In this document: in pieces, positions 10,335-51,799 of the stretch
Position numbering within the stretch: the first letter of the stretch is position 1
Layout of the letters: each line of letters starts with the position of its first letter
From: Candidatus Latescibacterota bacterium
Lineage (GTDB): Bacteria; Latescibacterota; UBA2968; GCA-2709665
Direction: 5' to 3'
Length of the DNA: 64,000 bases
Assembly: GCA_965198095.1 (NCBI GenBank)
Contig: OZ240239.1
Span: 1,018,816-1,082,815 of the forward strand
Program-made: the position numbers and the translations under genes
Notes under the pieces: generated by a model
The model's input: the letters and a program-made list of their open reading frames with translations, nothing else
What the model was told of the DNA's origin: nothing
Databases searched by the model: none

Positions 10335-10433
10335 GTGCGTCAGCGCCAATGGTATCTGCGCGCCTACGTTCCCGGCATCTGCCGGCCTCCCACACCTCTG
10401 ATCGGAACGTTGAGACCAGGAAAGGAAGGCATC

Positions 10434-13667: not shown

Positions 13668-14118
13668 CCCGCGCCGTCGCCCATAGGCCGGGTCACGGTC
13701 TCATATATCCTCATCAATAGGGATGAGTTTGGAGATGACCCAGGGTTTGGGGGCTTCGCATTAGCCTTGATTCGAAAAAAACAAGCAATCCACAACTTCG
13801 TAAGGCCGTGAGAAATGTGGAATTACCTCAGCTAAAATGCACTGTTTTTCTGTTCACATCCCGTGAACTAAAGAATGGCCGAATGGTGACGTAAAGACGC
13901 CTTTGTTCTTCTGGACAAATCCCAGAGAACACCGCCGAGATATTTCGAATCAAGGTTAGTGTTTGGGCCACCCATTTTCGGTCTCATGGACGCCGGTGCC
14001 GGCTGATTCCGGGGCTATGTCTGCCGGAGGCGCTCCTCGCAGGGGTGGTCCTGGCTCCCCCCTATCCCGATTCAGTGCCCTGAGCGACGCGACGCACGCG
14101 CTGCGTTTGCCCGCAGTC

Positions 14119-19996: not shown

Positions 19997-20121
19997 GTTG
20001 GAAGCGCGGACCAAAGCCGATCCCGTCAGGCGTGGGTTCCTTCATCTTCGAACGGCAGGAGACAACCGGAAGGGGCGGCAGCCCGTCGGCTTCTGCTGCT
20101 GAGCGGCCCGCTGTCCGTGGA

Positions 20122-21573
20122 TCATCCGTTCATTAATCCTGCGAGTTCTCTTTCGATCTCGATGATTTCTCGAATGTTTTCCAAAAACCAGGGATCGATA
20201 CGCGTGAGTCTGCTGATCTCCGAAGTGGGCCACCCCATCACGTAGGCGGACCGTATGTAGAACAGGCGCTCGGAACTCGGCATCCTGAGCTGCCCTCTCA
20301 ACTCGGCCGGATCCAGCTGCGTGACGTCCGGGTCTTTGCCGTCCGCTCCAAATCCGGCGCGCCCGATCTCGAGCGACCGGAGGCCCTTTTGCAGAGCCTC
20401 CTTGAAGGTCCGGCCGATGGCCATGGTTTCTCCAACCGACTTCATTTGTGTGCCGAGAAGGTTGTCGGCCTGCGGAAACTTCTCGAACGTCCAACGGGGG
20501 ATCTTGACGACGCAATAATCGATCGTCGGTTCGAAGGAGGCCGGGGTCTCGCGCGTGATGTCGTTTCGGATCTCGTCCAGGGTGTAGCCCACCGCGAGCT
20601 TGGCCGCGATCTTGGCAATCGGAAAACCCGTGGCCTTGGAGGCCAGGGCAGAGCTCCGGGAGACGCGGGGGTTCATCTCGATGATGACCATACGTCCCGT
20701 CTCAGGCTCTATGGCAAACTGGATGTTGGATCCTCCGGTTTCGACACCGATCTCCCGGATCACGTCCATGGCTGCATCCCGCATCCGCTGATACTCCTTG
20801 TCCGTCAGCGTCTGTGCCGGGGCCACGGTGACGGAGTCGCCGGTGTGGATGCCCATCGGGTCGAAGTTTTCTATGGAGCAGATGATGACGACGTTGTCGT
20901 TCAGGTCGCGCATGACCTCGAGCTCGAATTCCTTCCAACCCAGGACCGACTCTTCTATGAGGATCTCGCTGGTGGGCGAGAGGTCGAGTCCTTGTGCGGC
21001 GACGCTCTCGAACGTCTCGGCGTCGTAGGCCGTGCCCGCTCCCGTGCCGCCGAGCGTGTAGGAAGGACGGATGATCGCCGGAAAACCGATGTCTGCCACG
21101 ACCCTGGTGGCCTCTTCCAGCGTGTGCGCAAACCCCCCCCTCGGCAGGTCGAGGCCGATACGCGCCATGGCCTTCTGAAACCGTTCCCGGTTTTCCGCCT
21201 TCTCTATTGCTTCTGAATTTGCGCCAATCAGTTCGACGTTGAACTGTTGCAGCACGCCCTGGCGATGGAGGTCCATCGCCACGTTCAGGCCGGTCTGTCC
21301 GCCCACCGTAGGGAGCAGGGCGTCGGGCCGCTCACGCTCGATCACGGCGGCACAGACTTCGGCCGTCACCGGTTCCACGTAGGTGCGATCGGCCATCTCC
21401 GGATCGGTCATGATCGTGGCTGGATTGCTGTTGACCAGGACCAGGACGTAGCCCTCTTCTTTCAGGGCTTTACACGCCTGTGTCCCGGAATAGTCGAACT
21501 CGCAGGCCTGACCGATGACGATCGGGCCCGAGCCGATGAGCATGACCTTTTCTATGTCGAGGCGTTTTGGCAC
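20122..21573 (-). CDS. carB: Carbamoyl-phosphate synthase large subunit, N-terminal segment (first ATP-grasp plus start of the oligomerisation domain)
   Basis: [42 protein letters not shown]...; ends ...[25 protein letters not shown] inside the oligomerisation domain. Confidence 0.85.
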
Positions 21574-25421: not shown

Positions 25422-25658
25422 GGCCGCCCTTGGCGAGGCGTCGGCGCTCCAGACAACCAACATTGAAAGCCATTTGGAGCCATGAAGCGTAAACGAGACG
25501 GATTGGTTTCCATTCGGGGATGCTCTCTCTGATCCGGGCGGGCCGGTGAAGGCGATCCGCGAAGCCTTCCCATGCGCTTCACCTGCTTCGACCAAGTGAA
25601 CCAGGGGCCGGAAGTCACAAACTATCTGCAACATCTCCGCCAATTTTCGATCGACGCC

Positions 25659-27113
25659 ATGTCAGATCCCGTGCTCAGGCTTGCGCCGTCCCCGACGGGT
25701 GGATTCCACGCCGGGAATGCCCGTACGGCAGTCTTCAACGATCTTTACGCGCGCCGCTACGGAGGCCGTCTGCTGCTTCGCGTCGAAGACACGGACCGGG
25801 ACCGCTTTACGAGAGATTCGCTGGCGACGATCCTGGAGGGGCTGGCGTGGCTCGGGATCGCCTTCGACGGCGACCCGGTCTTTCAGACGGGAAACGCGGA
25901 GGCGCACCGTCGCGCAGCGGAATCGCTTCTGAAGCAGGGCAGGGCCTACAGGTGCTACTGCACGCCCGACGCGCTCGAGGCGAAGCGCAAGCAGGCCATT
26001 TCGGAGAGGCGTCACGTCAAATACGACGGGACGTGCCGAGATCTGTCACCGGAAGTGCGGGGCGAAAAGGAACGGCGCGGCATCCCCTGCGTCGTGCGAT
26101 TTAACGTCCGGGAGGGGGAGACGGCGTGGAACGACGCCATCCGAGGGCCTTCTGTCTGGGCGAACGGGCAGATCGGAGACTTCGTCATCCTTCGCGCGGA
26201 CGGGTCGGCGACCTATCAGCTCGCCGTCGTGGTGGACGACCACGATATGGGGGTCACGCTCGCCCTGAGGGGGGCGGATCACCTGTCGAACACGCCCAAG
26301 CAGATCATGCTGTTCCAGGCGCTCGGTTGGACGATCCCGGATTATGCGCACACGACGCTCATCCTGGGGCCCGACGGCAAAAAGCTGAGCAAGCGCCACG
26401 GCGACACGACCGTTCTGGAATACCGCGAGCGGGGGCTGTTGCCGGTTGCGCTTTACAACTTCCTCGCGCTGCTGGGATGGGCCCCGGAGGAAGCCGGACG
26501 GGAGGTGTTCGAGCGAGAGGCGCTGGTGGAGGCGTTTTCGATCGAGGGGATGCTCAGGAAGGACGCGGTGTTCGACGAGAGGAAACTGGATTGGCTGCAA
26601 GGCGAGCACATCCGCGCGAAATCGGCGTCGGAGCTGGCCGACGCCGCGGCGAAGGTCTGGATCGAAGCGGGGTGGATGGACGAAGCAGAGGCGGAAGATC
26701 GCGAGGCGGAGCTGGCTCGCATCTGCGCCTTGCTGCGGGAGCGCATCCGGACCTACGGCGACTTCCTGGCCTTCGGCTATTTTTTCAAAGACCCTGAAGC
26801 GTTCGAAGAGAAGGCGAGAAAGAGACACTGGAAAGCGGACACCCCGGTTCGAATCGAGGCGCTCGTTTCCAGGCTCGAGGCGCTGGAGCGGTTTACGGAG
26901 GGAGAGGTTGAACGGGTGACGCGGACCCTGGCCGGGGAACTCGGGATCTCTCCGGCCCGGCTGATCCACCCTGCGCGGCTCGCCCTGTGCGGCGTCGGGT
27001 TCGGGCCCGGATTGTTCGAGTTGATGGAGGTGCTCGGCCAGGAGACCTGCATCAGACGCCTGCACAACGGGATGGCGTTGCTGGGCCGGGAGACGCCCGT
27101 CTCGGCGGAATGA
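25659..27113 (+). CDS. gltX: Glutamyl-tRNA synthetase
   Basis: Class-I HIGH motif (PSPTGGFHAGNART) and a KMSKS-like KLSKRHG. GluRS-like layout. The antisense ORF 26046-27065 is rejected. Confidence 0.9.
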   Translation: MSDPVLRLAPSPTGGFHAGNARTAVFNDLYARRYGGRLLLRVEDTDRDRFTRDSLATILEGLAWLGIAFDGDPVFQTGNAEAHRRAAESLLKQGRAYRCYCTPDALEAKRKQAISERRHVKYDGTCRDLSPEVRGEKERRGIPCVVRFNVREGETAWNDAIRGPSVWANGQIGDFVILRADGSATYQLAVVVDDHDMGVTLALRGADHLSNTPKQIMLFQALGWTIPDYAHTTLILGPDGKKLSKRHGDTTVLEYRERGLLPVALYNFLALLGWAPEEAGREVFEREALVEAFSIEGMLRKDAVFDERKLDWLQGEHIRAKSASELADAAAKVWIEAGWMDEAEAEDREAELARICALLRERIRTYGDFLAFGYFFKDPEAFEEKARKRHWKADTPVRIEALVSRLEALERFTEGEVERVTRTLAGELGISPARLIHPARLALCGVGFGPGLFELMEVLGQETCIRRLHNGMALLGRETPVSAE

Positions 27114-27121
27114 GATTGCAC

Positions 27122-27195
27122 TGCCCCCTCGTCTAATGGCAAGACATGCGGCTCTGGACCGTAGAATCGGGGTTCGAATCCCTGGGGGGCAGCCA
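27122..27195 (+). tRNA. tRNA-Gln (anticodon CTG), CCA encoded
   Basis: TGCCCCC...anticodon loop CTCTGGA...CGGGGTTCGAATCCCTGGGGGGCAGCCA. Acceptor and T stems pair. Confidence 0.8.
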
Positions 27196-27296
27196 TCAAA
27201 CAGCGCTCCTGTCTCCGAAAGCAGGGGCGCTCACATTTTGAACGGCGTTGAATTCCGGATCGGAGAGGCCCGTTTGGAGGTTGAGGAACAGGACGC

Positions 27297-29000
27297 ATGC
27301 CAGCGCGCGACGTAAAAGTCCGTCCGGAGGAGGCGGCATCCGATTTCATCCGCGACGCGATCCGTGAGGACCTTCGAACGGGTCGTTGCGATGGCGTGAT
27401 GACGCGGTTTCCGCCCGAGCCGAACGGATATCTGCACATCGGTCACGCCAAGCCGATCTGCTTGAACTTCTGGATTGCCGAGGAGTTCGGCGGGGTCTGC
27501 AACCTCCGCTTCGACGACACGAACCCCCTCAAGGAGGAAGAGGAATACGTCGATGCCATTATGAAAGACATCCGGTGGCTCGGGTTCGACTGGGGCGGTC
27601 ATCTCTACTTCGCGTCGGACTACTTTGAGCAGCTTCACGCGTTTGCGGCCACACTGATCGAAGCGGGAAAGGCCTTTGTATGCGACCTCGGTCCCGAGGA
27701 GGTCCGGGACTACCGGGGCACCCTGACCCGGCCCGGGCGCGAGAGTCCGTTTCGCAGCCGGTCGGTGGAGGAGAACCTGGATCTGTTCGCTCGGATGCGG
27801 GCCGGGGAGTGTCCGGACGGGTCGCGTACGCTCCGGGCCAAGATCGACATGGCATCGCCCAACATGAACATGCGGGATCCGGTGATGTACCGAATTATCC
27901 GCGCCTCTCACCATCGTACGGGGGATCGGTGGCGCATCTATCCCATGTACGACTTCGCTCACGGACAGTCGGATTCCATCGAGGGTGTGACGCATTCACT
28001 CTGTTCGGGAGAGTATGAGGATCATCGCCCCCTGTATGACTGGTTCATAAGGGAGTTGAAGATCTTTCCCTCCCGGCAGATCGAGTTTCCCAAGCTGTTC
28101 CTCACCTATACGATGGTGAGCAAGCGGCGGCTGCGGCGTTTGGTAGACGAAGGATACGTGATGGGCTGGGACGATCCGCGGATGGCAACGCTGGCCGGGA
28201 TGCGCCGGAGAGGGGTGCCGCCCGAAGCGATCCGAACCTTCGTGCGACGCGTCGGGATGACCAAACGGGATACGACGGCTGAGATCGAGCTGTTGGAGCA
28301 CCACATCCGCGAATCCTTGAATTTCAGCGCGTCCCGCGTGATGGGGGTGATCGATCCGCTGCGCGTCGTGATCGAAAACTACCCGGAGGGGAAAAGCGAG
28401 GAGATCGAGGCGATCAACAACCCGGAAGATCCCTCCGCCGGCACGCGCAAGGTCCCCTTCTCGCGGGTTCTCTACATCGAGCGCGATGATTTCATGGAAG
28501 ACCCGCCGCGGAGGTTTTACCGACTCGCGCCCGGGCGGGAGGTCCGCCTCCGCTATGCCTATCTCATTACGTGCAGGGAGGCGGTACACGACGAGAACGG
28601 CGAGGTGGTGGCGCTCAAATGTACGTATGACCCGGAGACGCGGGGCGGAGACGCACCCGACGGACGGAAGGTGAAGGCGACCCTGCACTGGGTGTCCGCC
28701 GAGCACGCGGCAAAGGTGGAAGTGAGGCTTTACGACCGGCTGTTCCGCGTGGAGAATCCGATGGAGACGCCCGAGGGCGGTGACTGGATCGACAACCTGA
28801 ATCCGGATTCCCTCGAGGTCCGTTCGGACTGCTACGTGGAGCCGAGCGTCAAAGGGGCGGCGCCGGGCTATCGGTGCCAGTTCGAGCGGCTCGGCTACTT
28901 CTGTGTCGATTCCGATTCGTCGGAAGACGGCCTGGTGTTCAACCGGACCGTCACGCTTCGGGATGCGTGGGCAAGGATGGCAAAGCGGAGAAAAGGTTAG
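27297..29000 (+). CDS. glnS: Glutaminyl-tRNA synthetase
   Basis: [29 protein letters not shown] (HIGH) and VMSKR (KMSKS), with a GlnRS-type anticodon-binding C-terminal domain. The antisense ORF 27996-29051 is rejected. Confidence 0.9.
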
Positions 29001-35739: not shown

Positions 35740-36038
35740 AGGGCCGTAAGCCCAGCGACCCGGTCCCCAAAGGCCGTTGTTCGGCCCGCTTCCGTCGTGG
35801 CTGGCAAACTCGGCCCCGCCCCGGAGGTCGCTGAGAAAAGACCCGAACAGAGCGCATTTTCTGTTTTTTCTGAATCTCCCTTGCTTAAATCTTGATTTTT
35901 TAGTATCTTACTTTTCTAAGATCGTTCTTCTCACATTCGCCTCTGAAGATTTCCTGCGCTACTTCTCGGGATTCGGGCCTGTTTTGAATGCCTCCCAAGA
36001 CCATCGCCGTTGATCTCGGGCCGTCAAGACAGGCATCC

Positions 36039-37410: not shown

Positions 37411-38145
37411 CTACCAGGGCAGCTTCGAGCTCCGTCCCAGCCGGGCCAGCGCCTCCTCCATCGCTCCCTTGACCACGCCGAACACCTGCACGTACTCCGT
37501 GAAGTCGTCCCACATGTGCTTGCCGGCCGCCTCGACCTTGGCCCTGGCACGGGCGAACTGCTCGGCCACCCGCGGATCGGCGTGGCCGCCGGGAAGGCCC
37601 AGCGACTGCGCCATGTCCTCCGGTCCGCCGCCGAAGAAGCCGATCCCGTCCACCCGCAGGATCTCATCGAGGTTGTCGACCGCCGTGACGCTCTCGATCT
37701 GCGGGACGACCAGCGTGTTCCGGTTCGCCGCCTCGAACAGGCCGGCGCGCTCAGGACCGTCCTGACGGAGCGCCATCGGGCGGCTGGTCGAGCTGCGCAG
37801 GCCGAGCGGCGCGAAGAAGGTGTACTTCACCAGCGCCTCCGCCCCCTCCCGCGTCTCCAGGTTGGGCACCACGATCACCTGCACGCCCCGATCCAGGTAG
37901 GACAGGATCGTCGACTCGGCACCGTCCTGGATGCGCATCGAGGTGGTCATGCCAAACCCCTCGGCGATGCGGCAGATCGTGCCTGCCTGCCGCGGAGTGA
38001 CAGGCGCGTGCTGGCTGTCCAGGCTGACGAAGTCCAGGCCCATGCGCCCGGCCAGCTCGGCCAGCTCCTCCGAGGGCTCGTTCATCGACAGCCCGAGCGC
38101 CTTTTCGCCCCGGGCCTTCCGCCATAGGATCCGGTTCTCGACCAT
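37411..38145 (-). CDS. HpcH/HpaI-family aldolase (2-keto-3-deoxy-acid aldolase)
   Basis: TIM-barrel HpcH signatures (LGLSMNEPS...DFVSLDSQHAP...VVPQIES). Antisense ORFs 37399-38127 and 37136-37765 are rejected. Confidence 0.7.
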   Translation of the reverse strand: MVENRILWRKARGEKALGLSMNEPSEELAELAGRMGLDFVSLDSQHAPVTPRQAGTICRIAEGFGMTTSMRIQDGAESTILSYLDRGVQVIVVPNLETREGAEALVKYTFFAPLGLRSSTSRPMALRQDGPERAGLFEAANRNTLVVPQIESVTAVDNLDEILRVDGIGFFGGGPEDMAQSLGLPGGHADPRVAEQFARARAKVEAAGKHMWDDFTEYVQVFGVVKGAMEEALARLGRSSKLPW

Positions 38146-38300
38146 GACTGTCTTCCTGTCTCCGGGGGTGATGATGGTGGCCGCGCCGGCCGCCGGAGCC
38201 GCGAGCCAAGGCACCGCCGGGCTTCGTGCCGGCTCCGCGTCGGATCTATTGAGGCATTGAAGACCGGGACACGGCGTGTCCGTCCTTCAGGCGTGGGAAT

Positions 38301-39396: not shown

Positions 39397-40485
39397 CTAC
39401 GGCGGACTCCAGACCTCTTTCAAGAGCCGGATCCAGTTTCCGGAGAGGATGTTTCGGACATCTTCGTCGGCGTATCCCCTGCGTTCGAAGATCGCTCTGA
39501 ACTTTTGGAGGTCTTGACTCGTGTTGAAGTCGCGCGGGGCCTGTTCGGTGCCGAAACCGGCGTCCACGTCGGTGCCGAGTCCGGCGTGGCGGGCGTTGCC
39601 CGCGACCTCGCAGACGTGGTCGATGTGATCGGCAACCGTCTCGAGGGTCGCTCTGGTTGTTTGTTTATACGGTGCGGTCGTGTGTTGCCACTCCGTGTCC
39701 AACATCCAGGCATCGAATGCGGAACCGATCACGCCCCCTCTTTCGATCACGGCCCTCAGCATGTCGTCGCTGAGCTGGCGCTGGTCGGGCACGAGGGCGC
39801 GGCAGTTGCAGTGGGAGGCGACCACGGGTCCGTCATAGACGTCGAGGAGCTCCCAGAAAGATTGGTCGGTCAGGTGGGTGAGATCGACGATGATGCCGAG
39901 TTCGCTGAAGGCGTCCAGGAGCGGCTTGGCGGGCGGGAGCAGGCCCCCCTCCGTGCCGCTGCCGTGGGCATAGCTGGTGACGCCGTAGTGAGAGAGGCTG
40001 GCGATGCGGAGTCCCGTGTCGTACCACTCCCGGACGTGATCGGGATCCAGGATCGGGTCGCATCCTTCGAGCGCGAGGACGAGGCCGATCGGCGTATCGG
40101 GCGCGGGGGCCTCCCAGCCGGCGACGACGTCATCCAGGTCCTGCGCGGACCGGACGATTCGGATCACGCCTTCTCTTTCCATGGCGTGGTAGTAGGCGGC
40201 GTGGCCGTAGGCGATGCCGTAACACTGCGCCTGGGTGTAGCACCCGATTCGGGTCCAGTTGTCTTTCGGGGCCAACCGGGCGGTCGCGGTCGCGATGACG
40301 AGCCCGACGTGGCCCTTGTGGAGCTCGTGGAATGTGGTCGTGCTGCTCCCGTAGGTCTCCATGACCTTCGGCGTGTCGTGGGTGCGCACGGTTGTCGCCG
40401 GCTGGGTGAGGTCGCGGTTGGCGTGCAGCGCGGTGAAGGCGAGGTCGAGATGACCGTCGGCGATGAGGATGGGGTTTTCAGTCAA
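39397..40485 (-). CDS. Membrane (renal-type) dipeptidase, peptidase family M19 - paralog 1
   Basis: ADGHLDLAF, a DLTHL-type metal site, ASHCNCRAL and GTDVDAGFG. ~75% identical to paralog 2. Confidence 0.85.
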   Translation of the reverse strand: MTENPILIADGHLDLAFTALHANRDLTQPATTVRTHDTPKVMETYGSSTTTFHELHKGHVGLVIATATARLAPKDNWTRIGCYTQAQCYGIAYGHAAYYHAMEREGVIRIVRSAQDLDDVVAGWEAPAPDTPIGLVLALEGCDPILDPDHVREWYDTGLRIASLSHYGVTSYAHGSGTEGGLLPPAKPLLDAFSELGIIVDLTHLTDQSFWELLDVYDGPVVASHCNCRALVPDQRQLSDDMLRAVIERGGVIGSAFDAWMLDTEWQHTTAPYKQTTRATLETVADHIDHVCEVAGNARHAGLGTDVDAGFGTEQAPRDFNTSQDLQKFRAIFERRGYADEDVRNILSGNWIRLLKEVWSPP

Positions 40486-40568
40486 GGGTCGCGTCTCCCC
40501 GATGCCTGGGCTGAAGGGTGTGTTCCTCGAAGATTGGATATGGACTGTTCGACGCTCTTCCTCAGCGG

Positions 40569-41669
40569 CTACGTGCTGCCTTCCTTCTCGCTCCAGGCGG
40601 CCTTCAAGAGCCGGATCCAGTTCCCCGACAGGATGTTCCCGACTTCTTCGTGCGAGTAGCCTCTGCGCGCGAAGATTTCCGCGAATTTCCGGAGATCCGC
40701 GATCGTGTTGAGGTCGCGCGGGGACTGCTCCGTGCCGTAGCCGCCGTCCAGGTCGGTTCCGATGGCGGCGTGGCGCGCGTTGCCGGCGAGGTCGCAGACG
40801 TGGTCGACGTGATCGGCGACCGTCTGGAGGGTCGCGTTCGTGATCTGTTCATAAGCCGGTCGCTCGTGGCCCCACTCCGGGTCCAGCATCCAGACGTCGA
40901 ACGCGGCACCGATCACGCCGCCCCGTTCGATGATCGACTTGATCATGTCGTCGCTGAGCTGGCGCTGGTTGGGGACGAGGGCGCGGCAGTTGCTGTGGGA
41001 GGCGAGCACGGGGCCGTCGTAGACGTCCAGGAGCTCCCAGTGAGACGGGTCGCTGAGGTGGGTGAGGTCGACGATGATGCCGGCCTCCCGGAAGGCGTCC
41101 AGGAGGGGCCTGGCCGTGGGCAGCAGGCCGCCCTCCGTACCGGTGCCGTGGGCGTAGCGGCTCACGCCGTAGTGTGTCAGGCCGGCCACGCGCACGCCCA
41201 GGTCGTACCACTCCCGAACCTGTTCGGGATCCCGAATGCCGTCGCAGCCTTCAAAGGCCAGCACCAGGCCGATCGGGGTGTCCGGGGCCGGATCTTCCCA
41301 GCTCGCGACGACCCGATCCAGGTCCTGAGCCGAGCGGACGATCCGGATCACGCCTTCCCGCTCCATCGCTTGATAGTAGGCGATGTGGCCCCTGACGACG
41401 CCGTAGCACTGGGTCTGGTCGTACATGCCGAGCCCGGTCCAGTTGTCCTTGGGCCCGACCTTGGCTGTCGCGGTCCCGAAGACGAGCCCGACGTGTCCCT
41501 TTCTGAGCTCGTGGAAACTGACCGTGCAGCTTCCGAAGGTCCGCATCACCGCCGGCGCATCGTGCGTGCGGATCGTGGCCGCCGGAACCGTGAGGTCGCG
41601 GTTGACCTGAAGGGCGCTGAAGGCGAGGTCGAGATGGCTGTCGGCGATCAGCGCGGGTCTGTCAGGCAT
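40569..41669 (-). CDS. Membrane dipeptidase M19 - paralog 2
   Basis: Colinear with paralog 1 (IADSHLDLAF...ASHSNCRAL...GTDLDGGYG). The start codon lies ~20 bp from tandem-repeat block 1. Confidence 0.85.
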   Translation of the reverse strand: MPDRPALIADSHLDLAFSALQVNRDLTVPAATIRTHDAPAVMRTFGSCTVSFHELRKGHVGLVFGTATAKVGPKDNWTGLGMYDQTQCYGVVRGHIAYYQAMEREGVIRIVRSAQDLDRVVASWEDPAPDTPIGLVLAFEGCDGIRDPEQVREWYDLGVRVAGLTHYGVSRYAHGTGTEGGLLPTARPLLDAFREAGIIVDLTHLSDPSHWELLDVYDGPVLASHSNCRALVPNQRQLSDDMIKSIIERGGVIGAAFDVWMLDPEWGHERPAYEQITNATLQTVADHVDHVCDLAGNARHAAIGTDLDGGYGTEQSPRDLNTIADLRKFAEIFARRGYSHEEVGNILSGNWIRLLKAAWSEKEGST

Positions 41670-41689
41670 AAGACCCTCGTTTCAAGAAA

Positions 41690-42500
41690 GGTGTAGGAGC
41701 CAACTCCGTTGGCGAAGCAAAAAGATTGCGGATTTGTTTTGCACTCATCCAATGGCCACTCATAGGGTCGGTAGAGGCGCACACCGCGATCAGATGGTTC
41801 GCCGTCGGGAGCCTGTCCTGAGCAAGCGTCAGCGAGTCGAAGGGACGGCTCCTACCGGATTATTGGGCCTATTGGATTCACCGATGTCATAACGTCCCAT
41901 ATCCGGTAGGAGCCAACTCCTGTTGGCGAAGCAAAAGATGGCGACTTGCTTTGCGCCGATCCAATAAGCCAACTCCGTTGGCGAAGCAAAAGATGGCGAC
42001 TTGCTTTGCGCCGATCCAATGGCCACCCATAGGGTCGGTAGAGGCGTACACCGCGATCAGATGGTTCGCCGTCGGGAGCCTGTCCTGAGCAAGCGTCAGC
42101 GAGTCGAAGGGACGGCTCCTACCGGATTATTGGGCCCAATGGATTCACCGATGTCATAACGTCCCATATCCGGTAGGAGCCAACTCCTGTTGGCGAAGCA
42201 AAAGATGGCGACTTGCTTTGCGCCGATCCAATAAGCCAACTCCGTTGGCGAAGCCGAAGATGGCGATTTGTTTTGCACCAGTCCAATGGCCACTCATGGT
42301 CGGTAGAGGCGTACACCGCGATCAGATGGTTCGCCGTCGGGAGCCTGTCCTGAGCAAGCGTCAGCGAGTCGAAGGGACGGCTCCTACCGGATTGTTGGGC
42401 CTAATGGATTCACCGATGTCATAACGTCCCATATCCGGTAGGAGCCAACTCCTGTTGGCGAAGCAATAGATGGCGATTTGTTTTGCGCCGATCCGATGGC
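41690..42500. repeat. Composite tandem repeat block 1 (three units of S ~55 bp plus L ~155 bp)
   Basis: The S unit is gagccaactcc(t)gttggcgaagc.aaagatggcga.ttg.tttgc.c.gatccaat. The L unit is ggccac.catagggtcggtagaggcg.acaccgcgatcagatggttcgccgtcgggagcctgtcctgagcaagcgtcagcgagtcgaagggacggctcctaccggattattgggcc.a.tggattcaccgatgtcataacgtcccatatccggtag. The block fills the whole interval between the paralog-3 stop and the paralog-2 start. Confidence 0.85.
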
Positions 42501-42502
42501 CA

Positions 42503-43627
42503 TCACTGCCACGCCTCCCTGAACAGCCGAACCGTGTTGCCGTGGGCGATCTTCGCGACGTCCTCCTCGCCATATCCCCGTTGACGCAGGATGTCCAGGA
42601 ACTTCTGCAGGTCGGCGATGGTGTCCATGTCGGTGGGCGCGTACTCTCGCCCGAACCCGCCGTCCAGGTCGGACCCGATGGCCACGTGATCGGCGTTTCC
42701 CGCGAGCTGGCAGATGTGATCGACGTGGTCCACGACGGCGTTCATGGGTCGCGTGGAAGCGGGCGGAACGCGGTCCGAGTCGATCCACGCCGGGTTGAGA
42801 AACCTTTCGACGAAGACGACGCCGATCACGCCGCCACGCTCGCAGAGTGTCTTGATCACGTCGTCACTCAAGAGGCGCTGAATCGGAACGAGGGCGCGGC
42901 AGTTGCAGTGGCTGGCGTGGATCGGTCCGTCCCAGCGGTCCAGGATCTGACGGAGGGCCAAGTCGGCGGCGTGGGTGACGTCCAGAACGATTCCGGCGGC
43001 GCGCAGCGCGTCCATCAGCGGAAATGCGGGGGGATAGAGCCCTCCGACGGTGCGCGTTCCGTGGCCGTAGGTGTTGGCCCCGTAGTGGGTGAGGGAGACG
43101 GCGCGGAGCCCGGCTTCCCACCAGTCTTCCACATTTTCCAGACCGAGGATCGGGTCGGCGCTCTCCATCGTGAGGATGAGGCCGATGGGCGTCTCAGGCG
43201 TCGGATGCGCCCACTCCGCGACAGAGGCATCCAGGTCCGCCACCGACTTGATGAACCGGATCTGCCCGTCTCGTTCCAGGGCGCGGTAGTAGGCCAAGTG
43301 GCCCATGGCCCGCGCGTATGCCGCGGCCTGCGTGCGGTCCGTATTGCCCGACGTCGGACCCGGCTCCTGCACCCGCGCCATGATCGTCCCGAGCGCGATG
43401 CCGACGTGTCCCTTCCGCATGTCGGGAAACGAGACCGTGGCGATGCCTTTGCCGACGTCGGCCCACGGATCGTGGCGGACCAGGACGGCTTCCGGGTCGG
43501 CGGTGGGCCCGAGGAGGAAACCGTCTTCCCGCTCGCGAAGGGTATCGACCGACTGGGTGAGATCGCGGCGGTGAAAGAGGGCGTTGTGCGCCAGGTCGAG
43601 GTGGCCGTCTATGATGAGGGTAGACAT
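42503..43627 (-). CDS. Membrane dipeptidase M19 - paralog 3
   Basis: IIDGHLDLAHN...ASHCNCRAL...GSDLDGGFG. More diverged from paralogs 1 and 2, and close to paralog 4. Confidence 0.85.
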   Translation of the reverse strand: MSTLIIDGHLDLAHNALFHRRDLTQSVDTLREREDGFLLGPTADPEAVLVRHDPWADVGKGIATVSFPDMRKGHVGIALGTIMARVQEPGPTSGNTDRTQAAAYARAMGHLAYYRALERDGQIRFIKSVADLDASVAEWAHPTPETPIGLILTMESADPILGLENVEDWWEAGLRAVSLTHYGANTYGHGTRTVGGLYPPAFPLMDALRAAGIVLDVTHAADLALRQILDRWDGPIHASHCNCRALVPIQRLLSDDVIKTLCERGGVIGVVFVERFLNPAWIDSDRVPPASTRPMNAVVDHVDHICQLAGNADHVAIGSDLDGGFGREYAPTDMDTIADLQKFLDILRQRGYGEEDVAKIAHGNTVRLFREAWQ

Positions 43628-43844
43628 AAAGCCGCCGGGAACGGGTACCGGGGACCCAAAACACGGGTACCGGGTACAGAAAGGCCGTTGTTCGTCGCTT
43701 GTCGTTCCGTCGTTCGCAGAAGTTGGATCACGAGACTACACGAAGCGCACGAAAAAATTGACAATGAATGTCGAACCGCGGAATACCGAATGTGGTGACA
43801 GCTGGACCACAGGCCACAGATTCCTTGTATCACAACCCCAACTC

Positions 43845-44875
43845 ACGCCCCATATCCGGTAGGAGCCAACTCCGTTGGCGAAGCCGAAGATGGCCGTATA
43901 TTATGCCGCCTAGCCAATGGCCAACTCCTGTTGGCGAAGCAAGAGATAGCGATTTGTTTTGCGCCAGTCCAATGGCCACTCATAGGGTCAGTAGAGGCGT
44001 ACACCGCGATCAGATGGTTCGCCGTCGGGAGCCTGTCCTGAGCAAGCGTCAGCGAGTCGAAGGGACGGCTCCTACCGGATTATTGGGCCCAATGGATTCA
44101 CCGATGTCATAACGTCCCATATCCGGTAGGAGCCAACTCCGTTGGCGAAGCCGAAGATGGCGATTTGTTTTGCACTCATCCAATGGCCAACTCCGTTGGC
44201 GAAGCCGAAGATGGCCGTATATTATGCCGCCTAGCCAATGGCCACTCATAGGGTCAGCAGAGGCGCACACCGCGATCAGATGGTTCGCCGTCGGGAGCCT
44301 GTCCTGAGCAAGCGTCAGCGAGTCGAAGGGACGGCTCCTACCGGATTGTTGGGCCTAATGGATTCACCGATGTCATAACGTCCCAAATCCGGTAGGAGCC
44401 AACTCCGTTGGCGAAGCCGAAGATGGCCGTATATTATGCCGCCTAGCCAATGGCCAACTCCTGTTGGCGAAGCAAGAGATAGCGATTTGTTTTGCGCCAG
44501 TCCAATGGCCACTCATAGGGTCGGTAGAGGCGCACACCGCGATCAGATGGTTCGCCGTCGGGAGCCTGTCCTGAGCAAGCGTCAGCGAGTCGAAGGGACG
44601 GCTCCTACCGGATTATTGGGCCTAATGGATTCACCGATGTCATAACGTCCCAAATCCGGTAGGAGCCAACTCCGTTGGCGAAGCCGAAGATAGCGATTTG
44701 TTTTGCACTCATCCAATGGCCACTCATAGGGTCGATAGAGGCGTACACCGCGATCAGATGGTTCGCCGTCGGGAGCCTGTCCTGAGCAAGCGTCAGCGAG
44801 TCGAAGGGACGGCTCATACCGGATTGTTGGGCCTATTGGATTCACCGATGCCATCGTGATGCGAGGCAGAAAACC
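43845..44875. repeat. Composite tandem repeat block 2 (four L units interleaved with two S variants)
   Basis: Same S and L families as block 1. One S variant carries the AT-rich insert ccgtatattatgccgcctagcc. The block runs from ~220 bp upstream of paralog 3 to the stop codon of paralog 4. Confidence 0.85.
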
Positions 44876-44884
44876 TCGGATGAA

Positions 44885-46006
44885 TCACTGCCACGCATTC
44901 CTGAACAGGCGCAGCGTGTTGCCGTGGGCGATCTTGGCCACGTCTTCCTCACCGTATCCACGCCGTCTCAGGACGTCCAGGAAGTTCTGCAGGTCGGCGA
45001 TGGTGTCCAGGTCGCAGGGGGACTTCTCGCGTCCGAACCCGCCGTCCAGATCGGACCCGATGGCGACGTGATCGGCATTTCCGGTGAGCTGACAGATGTG
45101 GTCGACGTGCTCGACGATGGCGCTCATCGGTCGGGTGAGGCCGGGCGCGGGTCCGAACATGTGCACATTCGGGTTGACGAACGTTTCGGCGAAGACCATG
45201 CCGATCACGGCGTCGCGCTCGCAGAGCGCCTTGATCATTTCATCCGTCAACAGCCGCTGGACCGGGACGAGGGCGCGGCAGTTGCAGTGGCTGGCGTGGA
45301 CCGGTCCGTCCCAGTATTCCAGCAGCTGCCAGAAGACGAGGTCGGAGGCGTGGGTCACGTCCAGCAGGACGCCCGCGTCGCGCAGGGCGTCCAGGAGCGG
45401 GTATGCGGGGGTATAGAGTCCGCCTTCGGTGCCCGTGCCGTGGCCGTAGGTGTTGGCCCCGAAATGGGTGAGCGAGACGGATCGGAGCCCGGCTTTCCAC
45501 CAGTCTTCCACATTTTCCGGCCCGAGGATCGGGTCGGCCCCTTCCATGGTGAGGATCAGGCCGACCGGCGTCTCAGGCGTCGGATGCTCCCACTCGGCAA
45601 CAGAGGCATCGAGATCTTCCGCGGATTTGATGAACCGGACTTCGCCCTCCCGCTCCAGGGCCTGGTAGTAGGCCAGATGGGAAATCCCCTGCGCGTGGGC
45701 GACGGCCTGTGTTCGCACGGAGTTGTGGCTGTCCGGACCGGGCAGCTGGATGCGGGACATGATCGTAATCAGCCCGATGCCGACGTGCCCCCTTCGCATG
45801 TCGGGGAGAGAGACCGTGGGAACGCCGTGCTCCTTGTCTTTCCAAGCGTCTTCCTTGACGAGGACCGCTTCCGGATCGGCGGAGGGGCCGCGCAGGAGGA
45901 CGTCTTCCCGTTCGCGGAGGACCCTTGCAGGCTGCCTCTGGTCGCGGCGATTGAAGAGGCCGTTGAAAGCCAGGTCGAGGTGGCCGTCTATGATGAGGGT
46001 AGACAT
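44885..46006 (-). CDS. Membrane dipeptidase M19 - paralog 4
   Basis: IIDGHLDLAFN...ASHCNCRAL...GSDLDGGFG. The long antisense ORFs 39361-46279 (plus strand) are rejected. Confidence 0.85.
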   Translation of the reverse strand: MSTLIIDGHLDLAFNGLFNRRDQRQPARVLREREDVLLRGPSADPEAVLVKEDAWKDKEHGVPTVSLPDMRRGHVGIGLITIMSRIQLPGPDSHNSVRTQAVAHAQGISHLAYYQALEREGEVRFIKSAEDLDASVAEWEHPTPETPVGLILTMEGADPILGPENVEDWWKAGLRSVSLTHFGANTYGHGTGTEGGLYTPAYPLLDALRDAGVLLDVTHASDLVFWQLLEYWDGPVHASHCNCRALVPVQRLLTDEMIKALCERDAVIGMVFAETFVNPNVHMFGPAPGLTRPMSAIVEHVDHICQLTGNADHVAIGSDLDGGFGREKSPCDLDTIADLQNFLDVLRRRGYGEEDVAKIAHGNTLRLFRNAWQ

Positions 46007-46124
46007 AGAGCCGTTGGCAGCGGGTACCGGGGCACCAGAACACGGGTACCGGGTACCGAAAGGCCGTTGTCCGTCGCTTGTCGTTCCGTCATTCGCAAAA
46101 GTTGCATCACAAGCCTATCTCACA

Positions 46125-46435
46125 CCCCGCATCCGGTAGGAGCCAACTCCTGTTGGCGAAGCAATAGGTGGCGACGTGGGGTGCGCCGATCCAATGGCCG
46201 TCTCCCTGTTGGCGAAGCAATAGGTGGCGACGTGGGGTGCGCCGATCCAATGGCCGTCTCCCTGTTGGCGAAGCAATAGGTGGCGACGTGGGGTGCGCCG
46301 ATCCAATGGCCGTCTCCCGACGGCGACGCAATAGGTGGCGACGTGGGGTGCGCCGATCCAATGGCCGTCTCCCGACGGCGACGCAAAAGATGGCGATTTG
46401 TTTTGCACCGATCCGATGGCGCCGGTTTTGGTGGT
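46125..46435. repeat. Tandem repeat block 3 (about five ~58-bp S-like units)
   Basis: ctgttggcgaagcaataggtggcgacgtggggtgcgccgatccaatggccgtctcc repeats three times, followed by two diverged copies. It starts with the same atccggtaggagccaactcc junction as blocks 1 and 2. Confidence 0.8.
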
Positions 46436-46718: not shown

Positions 46719-46795
46719 TCGGGGCGTGGCTCAGTCCGGTAGAGCACCTGCTTTGGGAGCAGGGGGTCGTGGGTTCAAATCCCGCCGCCCCGACC
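46719..46795 (+). tRNA. tRNA-Pro (anticodon TGG), CCA encoded
   Basis: CGGGGCGTGGCTCAGTCCGGTAGAGCACCTGCTTTGGGAGCAGGGGGTCGTGGGTTCAAATCCCGCCGCCCCGACCA. The minus ORF 46489-47166 across it is rejected. Confidence 0.85.
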
Positions 46796-47180
46796 AAAAG
46801 AAACGGCACCCACAAGAACCCTTGACGGTCTTTAGGAACCTGCTTATCGTAATCTCGACACAGATCCGCGCACCGCTCGTTATTCTTCACACGAAAGGGG
46901 GATGCGAAATGAACCTCATTTATCTGATCGCGGCGTCCCCGGGTGGTTTTATGTAGACTCTGATTCACAGGGTCAAACGATTCAGGCTTTGATTCATGCC
47001 AAAGGCAGAGTTGGAGGTCGTCCGAGGGGGCGGCCTCCTTTCTTTTTGCTTCGAGCCAAGGATGCGCAGCATCCCGTCGATTCCGCTCGGGCAGGCGCAA
47101 TGTTCCTTGGGCGGTGGGACCCCGTCCAAATCGCCGGTTTGACCCCAGGTCGGGGCGCCACCGCAAACAAGCAAGAGGGA

Positions 47181-47957
47181 ATGTTTATGAATTTCGATCT
47201 TGAGGCTTCAGAATTCCAACGCGCCTGGCTCCAGCGTGCTTTGGGAGCGTTTCACGAAGATGGATGGTTCACTGACATCCTGTATCGCGCCAAAGGTGGC
47301 AAGGAGGCCAATGTTTACTGCTGCAGGGCGAGCCCGGAGACAGGTTACGAATTCGTCGCCGCGAAGGTATACCGGCACCGTAGACTTCGATCCATGAAAA
47401 ATTACGCCGTGTACCGGGAGGGCCGGCATGTCACAAGCGATAGGCGTGAACTCCGGGCCTTGAAGAAGAAGACAAGGATAGGCAAAGCTGTTGAAGATGG
47501 CGCCTGGATAAGACACGAGTACGATACGATGACGCGACTTTACGATATGGGGGCAAGTGTGCCCGAACCTCTGGCAAGAGGCAGCACTGCGCTTTTGATG
47601 GAATATATAGGAGACGAACACGGAGCGGCGCCCCTTTTTCACGAGGTTGCCCTCAAAGAAGACCAGGCCCAGGACTTTTTCGACCGCTTGATGTACAACG
47701 TTGAGATCTTTCTGGCCCGCGACCTGGTACACGGAGACCTGTCAGCTTATAATGTCCTCTATTGGGATGACGATTTCAGGATCATTGACTTCCCTCAGGC
47801 AGTCGATCCGGTATTGAATCCCAACGCCCTCTCCCTGTTGGCACGTGATGTCGAGCGGCTATGCCAGTATTTCTCTCGGTACGGCGTGGAGGCCAACTAC
47901 GTTGATCTTGCAGCAGATCTGTGGGAGAGATTTAGTCGAAGGGAGCTCGCCGTGTGA
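47181..47957 (+). CDS. RIO-type serine protein kinase
   Basis: GKEANVY (the ATP-binding loop), the catalytic loop LVHGDLSAYNVLY and the metal-binding IIDFPQAVD are all RIO1-family signatures. An RBS AAGAGGGA precedes the ATG at 47181. Confidence 0.7.
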   Translation: MFMNFDLEASEFQRAWLQRALGAFHEDGWFTDILYRAKGGKEANVYCCRASPETGYEFVAAKVYRHRRLRSMKNYAVYREGRHVTSDRRELRALKKKTRIGKAVEDGAWIRHEYDTMTRLYDMGASVPEPLARGSTALLMEYIGDEHGAAPLFHEVALKEDQAQDFFDRLMYNVEIFLARDLVHGDLSAYNVLYWDDDFRIIDFPQAVDPVLNPNALSLLARDVERLCQYFSRYGVEANYVDLAADLWERFSRRELAV

Positions 47958-50811: not shown

Positions 50812-51085
50812 AGTGCGTTCTCCAGAAAGGTCGATGGTCATCAGTGAAGCGAACATCGTGGGCCACACCGGAGGACCACCGAAATACGATTCTCCATTGA
50901 TCGTTGACTCGGATGCCGTGGAACCCACGTAAATCTCCCCGCAGTGCCTGCAGGCGATTGCCGGGAGGCGATCTTAGGCTGAATCATTCATGAATCGTCA
51001 CGGTTAGCTGCTTGATTCGCGAGTCAATCAACTCCACCCCGGCACAGTGGCTTGTCGAGCGGTTGAGGAAGGGTGTGTGAAGGTG

Positions 51086-51107
51086 GGGCAGACATTCCTG
51101 TCTGCCC
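51086..51107. repeat. REP-like palindrome downstream of the RAYT gene
   Basis: GGGCAGACA-ttcc-TGTCTGCCC (9-bp perfect stem), extendable to GTGAAGG..CCTTCAC. Confidence 0.6.
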
Positions 51108-51108
51108 T

Positions 51109-51799
51109 TCACATTGTCCTTTTCCCGGAATCCGGAATGCAGACAGAAGAAAGGCGTGCGCCGCCTTTATAGAGCCAATACGCGTCGTTGCGCAGTCCGT
51201 CTTTTGTGGGGTTTTCCGTGATGTAGCGGATGAAGCGCCAATACTGCTTTTCGCTACGCACGATGTGATCATAGGATTCGTCAAGCCAGAACGTCCCGGT
51301 GACGCCTGTGAGTTTGTTGATTTCTCGGGCAAAGGCGCCTTTTATGCCCTGCAGAATCCGCGAAAGGTTGTGGCCTCCCAGGGGTTCCATGAGGAGGTGA
51401 ACATGCGTGGGCATGATGACGGCTGCGTGAAGCCGGTGTCTTTCGCCGTCGAAACGCAAAAGACAGTTCTTGACCGCTTCACGGGCATCTATGTGCGCCA
51501 GGGCACGGGAACCAGAGCCGGCATTGAGCCAGGATTCGATCTTTTCATCGAAACGTCGGTTGTACTCTTTCCACTCGGCGTCTGTCCACGGTTCGGGGTG
51601 GCGCTTGTGCCACAGCTTACGCGCTTCCTGGAAGGTCCCGGGGGATCGCGTCAGCGAGGCGAAAGGTGATCCAATAGATCGCACCGTCTTTATTCCAGTG
51701 GGGGAGACGGCGGCGAGTCGTAGCGTGCCCGGACACAGGATGCAAAGGTTCCGGTTTGAGGGTGATGAGCAGACAGGAATGTCTGCTCCACATTTCCAA
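51109..51799 (-). mobile_element. REP-associated tyrosine transposase (RAYT, IS200/IS605-like TnpA_REP), interrupted by a frameshift
   Basis: The N-fragment (51617-51799) reads RRRLPHWNKDGAIYWITFRLADAIP. The C-fragment (51109-51684) has the HuH motif HVHLLMEP and the catalytic Tyr region YWRFIRYITENP. The two frames overlap at the run ccccgggacc. Confidence 0.65.
51767..51788. repeat. REP-like palindrome at the 5' end of the RAYT gene, inverted relative to the downstream copy
   Basis: GAGCAGACA-ggaa-TGTCTGCTC. The loop is the reverse complement of the ttcc loop of the copy at 51086-51107. Confidence 0.6.

Follow-up and report, generated by a model that had tools for sequence, protein, structure and literature searches.

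REP/REPIN-type palindromes as the probable source of tandem repeat arrays in an M19 dipeptidase-like gene cluster of a Latescibacterota bacterium

Two repeat units, S and L, fill spacers in a cluster of four M19 dipeptidase-like genes, and both probably derive from a single small palindromic element, of REP/REPIN type, amplified locally in tandem and spread by recombination between spacers. The genes form a head-to-tail array on the minus strand, as seen in the ORFs of the window, the 64-kb stretch of DNA analyzed as a whole:

39397..40485, minus strand: g1, M19 dipeptidase-like, 362 aa, TTG start (Pfam PF01244, E 7e-54)
40569..41669, minus strand: g2, M19 dipeptidase-like, 366 aa (PF01244, E 9e-55)
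42503..43627, minus strand: g3, M19 dipeptidase-like, 374 aa (PF01244, E 8e-51)
44885..46006, minus strand: g4, M19 dipeptidase-like, 373 aa (PF01244, E 9e-52)

Judged by sequence, g1–g4 are assigned to Peptidase M19, with PF01244 (Peptidase_M19) scores of 173-187 bits against a gathering cutoff of 26. The closest solved structure to g3 is 3id7, a renal-type dipeptidase (E 1.5e-19), and the plus-strand ORFs overlapping the four genes have no Pfam match. Identity is 72.5% (aa) and 78.6% (nt) both for g1/g2 (type B paralogs) and for g3/g4 (type A paralogs), and 44-49% (aa) between the pairs. An earlier note on this DNA had described four same-strand, head-to-tail M19 paralogs, about 75% identical within pairs 1/2 and 3/4, together with composite S/L tandem repeats; the Pfam matches, the measured identities, and the TRF arrays and unit map given below bear this out. 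It had also placed three repeat blocks between paralogs, which is correct for A and B, but block C lies between g4 and a divergent tRNA-Pro (46720-46796), and the 83-bp g2-g1 spacer is repeat-free:

41690..42502: block A, read in the sense (minus) direction as S-L-S-S-L-S-S-L-S (3 L-long and 6 S)
43846..44875: block B, read in the sense direction as partial L, S, L, S-S, L, S-S, L, S-S (4 L-long, one of them partial, and 7 S)
46125..46424: block C, upstream of g4, five directly oriented S units and no L

The first S unit of block A begins directly 3' of the g3 stop codon, and the far end of the block lies ~21-23 nt before the g2 ATG. Between the g4 stop and the start of block B are ~10-30 nt, and 218 nt separate the other end of this block from the g3 ATG; of the blocks said to abut a stop codon, A at g3 does so. 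TRF finds a period of 267 in block A (41698-42494, 3.0 copies, 94% matches), periods of 267 (43845-44691, 3.2 copies) and 211 (44453-44854) in block B, and a period of 56 in block C (46149-46396, 4.5 copies, 96% matches). A repeat-family search of the window yielded 16 S copies and 7 L-containing copies. The 21-nt S core has 6 exact matches against 0.03 expected by chance, by a pattern whose fixed Ns detect the 4-nt-loop variant only, and the 46-nt L core has 7 matches against 0 expected; all of them are confined to 41.6-46.5 kb of the window. The arrays start part-way into the inter-element spacer; at their other end, unique leader is joined to the initial ~14 nt of L. They are non-coding, because neither the S period nor the 233/236 periods are divisible by 3 and gene callers called no gene within blocks A or B at any locus compared.

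Each S/L junction carries GTAG-GA-GCCAAC-TCC(T)-GTTGGC-GAA, which comprises the parts of a REP: a GTAG head, two unpaired nucleotides (GA), a 6-bp GC-rich stem, a 3-5-nt loop, and GAA. A scan for GTAG followed by a hairpin revealed nine complete GTAG-GA-GCCAAC-loop-GTTGGC-GAAG copies on the plus strand and six GTAGGAGCC heads on the minus strand, the latter inside L. The basic element and its insertion are exemplified in block A:

41688..41861: basic element, two inverted GTAG-headed REPs with heads outward, a REPIN-like head-head dimer
41812..41844: 33-nt insertion CCTGTCCTGAGCAAGCGTCAGCGAGTCGAAGGG, located in the REP loop within L, which makes the L-long form

The first REP of this example, GTAGGAGCCAACTCCGTTGGCGAAG, lies on the plus strand at 41693, and the second, on the minus strand, ends with ...GGCTCCTACCGGAT at 41847-41860. 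Perfect 14-15-nt inverted repeats were detected in the element by an inverted-repeat search. The inverted REP dimer, of ~141 nt, forms one long imperfect hairpin when folded, and the fold of the insert-free element has z values of -6.3 (sense RNA), -8.1 (antisense RNA), and -3.9 (ssDNA). The 33-nt insertion is found in 7/7 L units of the window and is missing from the L units of assemblies L012, L014, and L016; L-long is 151 nt and L-short 118 nt, and L017 has both forms. The 233-267-bp period corresponds to the long hairpin reiterated along with ~40 nt of flank, and the 55-56-bp S period to its right arm reiterated alone. Plus and minus REP heads alternate at regular spacing in blocks A and B, as in BIMEs, and block C, with direct S units only, lacks this alternation. 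Two stem variants occur, AAC/GTT in 56 copies and GTC/GAC in 25, along with 3 broken-stem chimeras. The variants differ by two compensatory pairs (RNAalifold: 2 pairs with both sides changed), which count as about one evolutionary event since the copies share descent. Block C mixes GCCGTC/GACGGC with GCCAAC/GTTGGC, and two of its units are chimeric with a broken stem, so that selection on every hairpin is not strict.

In GTAG-1 REPs, a dinucleotide separates GTAG from the stem, which is mostly of 6-9 bp (5-13), and a short loop and a far-side 3-bp motif complete the layout (PMC3733652). The element has the GTAG head, the dinucleotide, a GC-rich stem, a short loop, the 3-bp motif, and complementary stem sub-families, and it shares the head-stem-loop-GAA layout of the GTAG-1 REPs of Pseudomonas, Xanthomonas, and Thauera (PMC3733652, PMC2817692). 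Its REP is almost the same sequence as the P. entomophila REP, GTAGGAGCCAGCTTGCTGGCGAA, and nearly identical in design to the Xanthomonas REP, GTAGGAGCGCGCTCGCGCGCGA (PMC2817692 Table 1). Common to both sides are also compensatory stem sub-variants, inverted dimers with 20-100-nt spacers, and clusters of dimers tandemly reiterated with flanking DNA, an arrangement already described (PMC3733652 section 5; PMC3116915, "REPIN clusters"; PMC2817692 on BIMEs). The assertion that no described system resembles these repeats is thus no longer tenable, because the units are palindromes of GTAG-1 layout in a described tandem inverted-dimer arrangement. What differs from GTAG-1 REPs is that all copies seen here surround one paralog array, and that the host is an uncultured bacterium. 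Among named organisms, Gemmatimonadota MAGs come nearest to this host, with 73% identity in GlnRS. As in the REPINs of P. fluorescens SBW25, inverted REP doublets form one long hairpin and are repeated in tandem with their flanks; the largest SBW25 cluster, of four REPINs and >700 bp, is comparable in size to blocks A and B, and the SBW25 single-REP tandem arrays resemble block C (PMC3116915). However, SBW25 has hundreds of REPINs and its clusters adjoin RAYT genes, whereas here the nearest RAYT is 4.7 kb off and has a different REP. The window has no other RAYT-like gene than this one:

51109-51684: RAYT-like gene (NF047646, E 4e-18, 65.6 bits against a cutoff of 80; Pfam Y1_Tnp)

It is flanked by GTGG-GGCAGACA-TTCC-TGTCTGCC hairpins, and no cognate RAYT flanked by the S-type REP was found in the 64-kb window. 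Together with the restriction of every copy seen to one locus, this different REP speaks for a locus-specific minisatellite (VNTR), that is, a chance-palindromic spacer amplified by replication slippage and unequal crossing-over, with no RAYT link and with a coincidental or convergent likeness to REPs. The single element orientation at all three sites, the partial units at array edges, typical of tandem duplication, and the lack of any protein resembling a translated repeat unit among 1.84 billion called-protein representatives fit such an origin as well. We nevertheless regard it as unlikely in view of the detailed match to the GTAG-1 layout, the two compensatory stem variants, the near-identity to published Pseudomonas REPs (PMC2817692 Table 1), and the inverted dimer with its REPIN-like hairpin fold. 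Furthermore, the absence of S/L copies outside the 4.8-kb locus was established for the 64-kb window, ~1.5% of a ~4.1-Mb genome, in which the own REP of the local RAYT also occurs just twice; ~100 kb of flanks from other strains likewise contains no S/L copies. Searches for the exact S core gave single scattered, chance-level matches only among 185,579 species genomes, a set from which the source species is seemingly absent, and chance-level scattered matches only in a JGI metagenome set that missed the pattern-bearing JGI contig L018. The REP-head pattern has no match in viral contigs.

The perfect inverted repeats might instead be read as the 15-nt terminal inverted repeats (AATCCGGTAGGAGCC) of a MITE, derived from a DDE-type IS but non-autonomous, that was inserted and then amplified, and DUF772-domain IS elements are indeed active around the locus in sister strains. 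The ends of these IS elements (CAGCCCGTTGAAAAA...) are unrelated to the element ends, however, and the DUF772 IS generated its own TTAG duplication inside the array. No target-site duplication is definable for the element, and a GTAG head with stem-loop ends is a hallmark of the substrates of Y1 transposases (RAYTs), not of DDE terminal repeats. A MITE origin is therefore highly improbable.

Comparison of strains shows that the arrays are real and recent. Arrays occupy the same three sites in six further assemblies of this species, which derive from at least four sequencing samples. The flanking proteins are 97-100% identical among the window, L012, L014/L015, L016, L017, and L018, yet the number and type of units vary. 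In contrast, L013 and L019, which represent an 85%-identical relative, have 1:1 orthologues of g1–g4 (85-89% aa; 89% for g1 in L013) separated by spacers of 82-274 bp, and these spacers have no S/L homology; S/L repeats are also absent from L020-22. Repeats thus arrived after the duplications. The genes are far older than these repeats, which did not give rise to the gene array, and the number of genes is four in each assembly spanning the cluster. The suggestion of a gene-amplification hotspot that gave rise to the paralogs is not supported by these data.

The same comparison bears on integron-like or cassette capture, a CRISPR-like array, and an assembly artefact, which are together the least credible of the explanations weighed here. 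In their favor, two of the genes are each followed by palindromic repeats of regular layout, and the short-read contigs of L018 break at the repeats. Yet the same four genes occur in the same order without repeats in L013 and L019, and no integrase or cas domains were found among the neighboring ORFs scanned. The arrays also recur in independent long-read assemblies, and L014 and L015, which come from different samples and differ in IS copy number upstream, show 1 mismatch in 4601 positions across the arrays; the repeat copy number is not an assembly artefact, a possibility the earlier note had raised. Integron gene cassettes were considered, including the cassette-like capture proposed there, and were rejected, as the scanned neighbors lack an integrase, the arrays are multi-unit instead of a single attC-like site per gene, and L013/L019 are repeat-free. 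A CRISPR array was likewise rejected, because the sequence between palindromes is itself repeated at 90-98%, leaving no unique spacers, and the scanned ORFs lack cas domains.

The DNA upstream of the genes suggests exchange between spacers. Two leaders are distinguished:

43628..43845, minus strand: g3 leader, unique, 218 nt
46007..46124, minus strand: g4 leader, 118 nt, with homology to the g3 leader in its proximal part

The proximal ~110 nt of the g3 leader is 88% identical to the g4 leader and contains three GGTACCCG-type motifs, and the g3 leader is conserved at 98% in L012. For g2 only, the upstream region is essentially all repeat: the unique DNA between the ATG and block A amounts to ~21-23 nt and includes a GAGGG ribosome-binding site. 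Transcription of g2 must hence start in, or pass through, the repeats. The idea that the promoters of paralogs 2-4 lie inside the repeats applies to g2 in this sense, but not to g3 and g4, which keep unique, mutually conserved leaders. In L014, a g3-type leader precedes both g2 and g4, a recombinant mosaic. The L-long or L-short form is largely uniform across the blocks within one strain, implying concerted evolution of the blocks, and the single orientation common to all units, in all blocks and strains, fits recombinational spread and not independent transposition.

For the REP/REPIN-type element, we propose the following course of events. After the split from the 85%-identical relative, the element would have come to lie in the non-coding spacer 3' of g3/g4. 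Amplification of the whole element with ~40 nt of flank would have produced the 233-236 bp period, which a 33-nt insertion in one REP loop would have lengthened to 267 bp; in a second register, the right arm alone would have been amplified with a 55-56 bp period (S unit). The 3' flanks and leaders of g4, g3, and g2 are paralogous, and recombination between them, unequal or non-allelic, may then have spread the repeats and homogenized the arrays of the three spacers; it may still alter copy number between strains.

A functional cis-regulatory or non-coding RNA array, made of structured sense/antisense RNAs or repeated operators, with copy number as a strain-variable dial (contingency locus) on paralog expression, would account for several observations in another way. 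The composite unit folds with a z of -3.7 on the plus strand (antisense) against -0.45 in the sense direction, and block A with -5.4 (plus, antisense) against -3.1 (sense). One S variant has sigma-70-like TTGGCG-N16-TATATT matches on the plus strand, copy number varies among strains, and g2 is leaderless here and has a leader in L014. However, two G-U pairs between the stem variants account for the asymmetry of folding, the promoter matches are consensus matches only, and the arrays have no Rfam match even at E <= 1. The units of different strains differ by a 33-nt indel, some stems are broken, and the 85% relative does without arrays. Such a dedicated array is accordingly very unlikely.

Tandem intergenic repeats are also known from mycobacteria. 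MIRU-type VNTRs are 40-100 bp tandem repeats in operon intergenic spacers, in gene orientation, with strain-polymorphic copy number, and they occupy dozens of loci. Copy number is strain-polymorphic in both cases, but MIRUs are not known to be inverted palindrome dimers headed by GTAG as the repeats here are. A functional model is provided by E. coli, where the REP325 cluster between yjdM and yjdN is a partial terminator and a stabilizer of upstream mRNA (bioRxiv 10.64898/2026.03.23.713779). Both E. coli BIMEs and the present arrays are alternating REP mosaics in co-directional spacers with strain-variable locations (bioRxiv 10.64898/2026.03.23.713779; PMC2817692), although the units here are longer (233-267 bp) and the S-only arrays are direct, not alternating. 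By analogy with these clusters, the inter-cistronic hairpin arrays, when transcribed, would probably reduce read-through into the gene downstream and shield the 3' end of the upstream mRNA. They may be a regulatory array at most in the weak sense known for REP clusters. Such effects would matter most for g2, which is leaderless in this strain. A stronger proposal, which we consider quite unlikely, is that the arrays are a locus-restricted, recombination-driven expression dial, in which transcription along g4->g3->g2-g1 would depend on the strain-specific length and composition of the arrays, and also on whether the g2 leader has been lost or gained. If so, the proportions in which the four diverged dipeptidase-like enzymes are made would differ between close strains even though no coding sequence had changed.

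Pfam and Tandem Repeats Finder bear out four same-strand, head-to-tail M19 paralogs with repeats lying between them, and the anatomy described in the earlier note is largely accurate. The genes (g1, the most downstream, to g4, the most upstream), the arrays (blocks A to C) and a gene resembling a REP-associated tyrosine transposase (RAYT) are as follows.

39397-40485, minus strand: g1, Peptidase_M19 (Pfam)
40569-41669, minus strand: g2, Peptidase_M19 (Pfam)
41698-42494: array in the g3-g2 spacer (block A), period 267, 3.0 copies
42503-43627, minus strand: g3, Peptidase_M19 (Pfam)
43845-44854: array in the g4-g3 spacer (block B), periods 267 and 211
44885-46006, minus strand: g4, Peptidase_M19 (Pfam)
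46149-46396: array upstream of g4 (block C), period 56, 4.5 copies
51109-51684, minus strand: RAYT-like gene, 191 aa

All four minus-strand ORFs match Peptidase_M19 with E-values of 1e-51 to 1e-55, and the long plus-strand ORFs overlapping them have no Pfam match. Protein identity is 72.5% and DNA identity 78.6% for g1/g2 and likewise for g3/g4; between the pairs identity is 44-49%. The g2-g1 spacer is 83 bp long and free of repeats. Block C precedes g4 and faces a divergent tRNA-Pro, so that of the three intergenic blocks that had been placed between paralogs, only A and B have a paralog on both sides. An HpcH/HpaI aldolase gene (37411-38214) lies downstream of the M19 genes.

The arrays are built from units S (55-56 bp) and L (118 nt in a short form, 151 nt in a long one), of which a repeat search of the window found 16 S-type and seven L-containing copies. 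Core-motif counts in the arrays are far above shuffled expectation; the S/L core motifs are absent from the remainder of the 64-kb window, and no S/L copy was found outside the M19 cluster within the window and about 100 kb of sister-strain flanks. Coding repeats were rejected: the S period and the 233/236 periods are not multiples of three, and no gene is called in blocks A or B at any locus. The arrays contain no intrinsic-terminator-like sites, and there is no Rfam match at gathering thresholds across the window or at E <= 1 across 41.6-46.7 kb. One S variant (…GTTGGCGAAGCCGAAGATGGCCGTATATTATGCC…) carries sigma-70-like TTGGCG-N16-TATATT matches on the plus strand, antisense to the dipeptidase genes; there are three, in block B only (43875-43904, 44196-44225 and 44408-44437), and they are consensus matches only.

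Each S/L junction, on the plus strand, contains the palindrome GTAG-GA-GCCAAC-TCC(T)-GTTGGC-GAAG, of which there are nine complete copies. A head on the minus strand, GTAGGAGCC, identical to that of the plus-strand junction, occurs in six copies in the L units; in sister strains this second head reads GTAGGAGCCGTCTCCCGACGGCGAA. The stem occurs in two versions, GCCAAC/GTTGGC and GCCGTC/GACGGC, two compensatory pairs apart, and over all strains 56 and 25 copies, respectively, are intact against three chimeric ones; because the copies share descent, this covariation amounts to roughly one evolutionary event. Two inverted REPs with their GTAG heads outward, together with the intervening sequence, make an element of ~141 nt that folds into a single long hairpin (z -6.3 as sense RNA, -8.1 as antisense RNA and -3.9 as single-stranded DNA). 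The element is thus a doublet like the REPIN (inverted REP doublet), and the hairpin register defines the units: L consists of an element's left arm, ~40 nt of inter-element flank and the next element's head, and S is the right arm. The palindrome is reiterated in tandem in two registers. The array edges agree with this reading, since arrays begin within the inter-element spacer, following a short unique 3' flank, and at their other end the first ~14 nt of L are joined to a unique leader. The antisense (plus) strand has a somewhat better fold than the sense strand, an asymmetry traceable to two G-U pairings of one stem variant with the other; it was not accepted as a sign of an antisense RNA.

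Genome-wide abundance and a cognate RAYT transposase are part of the definition of a REP. By anatomy, rather than by demonstrated dispersal, the arrays are a tandem cluster of the REP/REPIN type (BIME-like). GTAG-1 REPs have a GTAG tag, an unpaired dinucleotide, a stem mostly of 6-9 bp, a short loop and a conserved 3-bp motif on the far side, and the window element shares this layout (Di Nocera et al., PMC3733652). Its REP is nearly the same as the P. entomophila REP GTAGGAGCCAGCTTGCTGGCGAA (PMC2817692, Table 1). In P. fluorescens SBW25, ordered tandem REPINs including their flanks reach up to four REPINs and >700 bp, and single REPs also occur in tandem arrays (PMC3116915). The earlier view that no described system is like this one therefore does not hold; nor is cassette-like gene capture supported, the CRISPR, integron attC and MITE readings having been rejected on class criteria.

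The RAYT-like gene matches Pfam Y1_Tnp and, with a score under the family cutoff, NCBIfam NF047646 (E 4e-18); its homologues are annotated as RayT by JGI. As expected for a RAYT, inverted GTGG-headed hairpins lie on both sides of it (region 51083-51791): GTGGGGCAGACATTCCTGTCTGCC at 51083 on the plus strand and GTGGAGCAGACATTCCTGTCTGC at 51791 on the minus strand, with a further copy at 288-305 of the same-species contig L016. This REP, GTGG-GGCAGACA-TTCC-TGTCTGCC, is a second family distinct from the dipeptidase-spacer REP, and the difference in sequence leaves no link that would make the gene the cognate transposase of the S/L elements. Over 19 nt the L insertion resembles part of the RAYT coding region (51648-51666), but no more than chance would give (E ~0.5). 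Because the RAYT's own REP is found in the window only at its flanks, low local density carries little information on genome-wide copy number.

An exact-pattern scan for the S core in species-genome and metagenome collections returned only isolated chance matches of 20-25 nt; the genome set is evidently without the source species, and the metagenome negative is weak, since L018, a JGI contig in which the pattern is present, was not returned. The exact REP-head pattern has no match in viral contigs. A translated 90-aa frame through one unit had 0 matches among 1.84 billion representative proteins, a search that detects only called ORFs in the same frame. Look-ups of g2 and g3 by exact sequence gave no record.

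Searches for homologous proteins and their encoding contigs recovered the M19 locus in six more assemblies of the same species (L012 and L014-L018), whose flanking proteins are 97-100% identical to those of the window. Two relatives, L013 and L019, have 1:1 orthologues of g1-g4 (85-89% aa), with spacers of only 82-274 bp and no S/L homology. Another lineage (L020-22, ~65% identity) has a single A-type and a single B-type M19 gene, downstream of which lie a sulfatase and an abhydrolase. The repeats are thus later than the gene duplications, and a gene-amplification origin of the paralogs is not borne out. An ancestral A+B pair was duplicated gene by gene to A A' B B', and the palindromic element arrived and amplified much later. 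In L020-L022 (8001-12856) the stop and start of the two M19 genes overlap, the abhydrolase is an Abhydrolase_7, and a TonB-dependent receptor adjoins, which suggests an uptake and catabolism cluster.

Composition of the arrays in the window and in same-species assemblies
Window: block A, 3 L + 6 S (833-bp spacer); block B, 4 L + 7 S (1257-bp spacer); block C, 5 S
L012: block B, broken by an IS; block C, 3 S
L014 / L015: block A, one partial L + 3 S + g3-type leader; block B, one partial L + 5 S (647-bp spacer); block C, 1 S
L016: block B, S-L-S (474-bp spacer); block C, 4 S
L017: block C, 2 S

Within the species, array composition differs from strain to strain, a rapid change in copy number as well as composition. 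The structure is not an assembly artefact: L014 and L015, from different samples, agree at 4600/4601 positions across the arrays, and the short-read JGI contig L018 breaks within the repeats. Every L unit of the window and of L018 carries a 33-nt insertion in the REP loop; all those of L012, L014 and L016 lack it, and L017 has both states, implying homogenisation across blocks within a lineage. Recombinant mosaics involving the leaders occur. In L014 a g3-type leader precedes both g2 and g4, block A of the window opens with S directly at the g3 stop (a form found elsewhere only in block B), and unit orientation is identical in all blocks and strains; together these point to recombination between paralogous flanks, not repeated transposition. 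Slippage or unequal crossing-over may have amplified the units, and non-allelic recombination, acting between the homologous 3' ends of g3/g4 and the leaders of g4/g3/g2, may have spread them over the three spacers.

The IS of L012 (DUF772, IS5-like; 7372-8919) lies within a block B L unit, with a TTAG duplication on both sides; the same IS occurs upstream of the cluster in three tandem copies in L014 (1827-6983) and in one copy in L015. L013 has a different conserved element of ~58 nt, GTCCCGATCTCTCGATACACGGCGCGCGGAGATAGGAACCTCATCAGCGCCGCA, after the g4 and g3 stops (9745-9800 and 11132-11186), and palindromes CCCTCTCCC/GGGAGAGGG in the g2-g1 and g1-abhydrolase spacers (12374-12529 and 13625-13766). 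Small repeats in both lineages imply that these spacers attract them.

The promoters of paralogs 2-4 had been placed inside the repeats. However, g3 and g4 retain leaders of unique sequence (218 and 118 nt), and only g2 has almost no unique upstream DNA. Because only ~21-23 nt of unique DNA remain upstream of g2 in the window's strain, against a GGTACC-rich leader retained in L013, L019 and L014, g2-g1 are probably expressed either by read-through of 810 nt of hairpins or from a promoter that lies within the repeats. If co-transcribed with the genes, the hairpin arrays could, by analogy, act like E. coli REP clusters, of which REP325 (yjdM-yjdN) limits downstream read-through and protects upstream mRNA (bioRxiv 10.64898/2026.03.23.713779).

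Directly upstream of g3 (43628-43740) and g4 (46007-46117), on the minus strand, is a conserved leader of ~110 nt with three GGTACCCG-type motifs. The two copies are 88% identical, the genes themselves 78.6% in DNA. It also precedes g2 in relatives (L013, 11197-11251; L014), has no Rfam match, and could act as an operator or 5'-UTR element. A leader-like match upstream of a DEAD-box helicase (35758-35783) was weak, lacked the GGTACC motif and was dropped.

Elsewhere in the window, the gene for a leucine-rich-repeat protein of 1110 aa (10335-13667, plus strand) contains three tandem arrays of 72 bp, or 24 codons (10900-11447, 12178-12650 and 13003-13497; TRF). The carbamoyl-phosphate synthase large subunit is apparently split into adjacent minus-strand ORFs (18167-20014 and 20122-21573); one encodes an N-terminal ATP-grasp half (483 aa), the other a C-terminal half with an MGS domain (615 aa). 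The GluRS and GlnRS genes are neighbours, separated by tRNA-Gln (25572-29000). A RIO1-type kinase gene (46902-47957, plus strand), uncommon in bacteria, adjoins the tRNA-Pro.

Gemmatimonadota MAGs are the closest named relatives (73% GlnRS identity), and the library searched gave no paper linking Gemmatimonadota and repetitive extragenic palindromes. The Pseudomonas-type GTAG-GA...GAA REP layout reaches an uncultured, probably Gemmatimonadota-related lineage, and what seems exotic in the raw sequence can be annotated under a known class, the REP/REPIN tandem clusters. This cluster stands out by occupying each of the three long spacers in an array of four paralogs and by its high variability among near-identical strains. 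In practice, such loci break short-read assemblies. The strain set is a natural series in which clusters grow, shrink, homogenise and reshuffle leaders while the genes stay 97-100% identical, and it offers a possible test, outside E. coli, of the terminator/stabiliser model of REP clusters.
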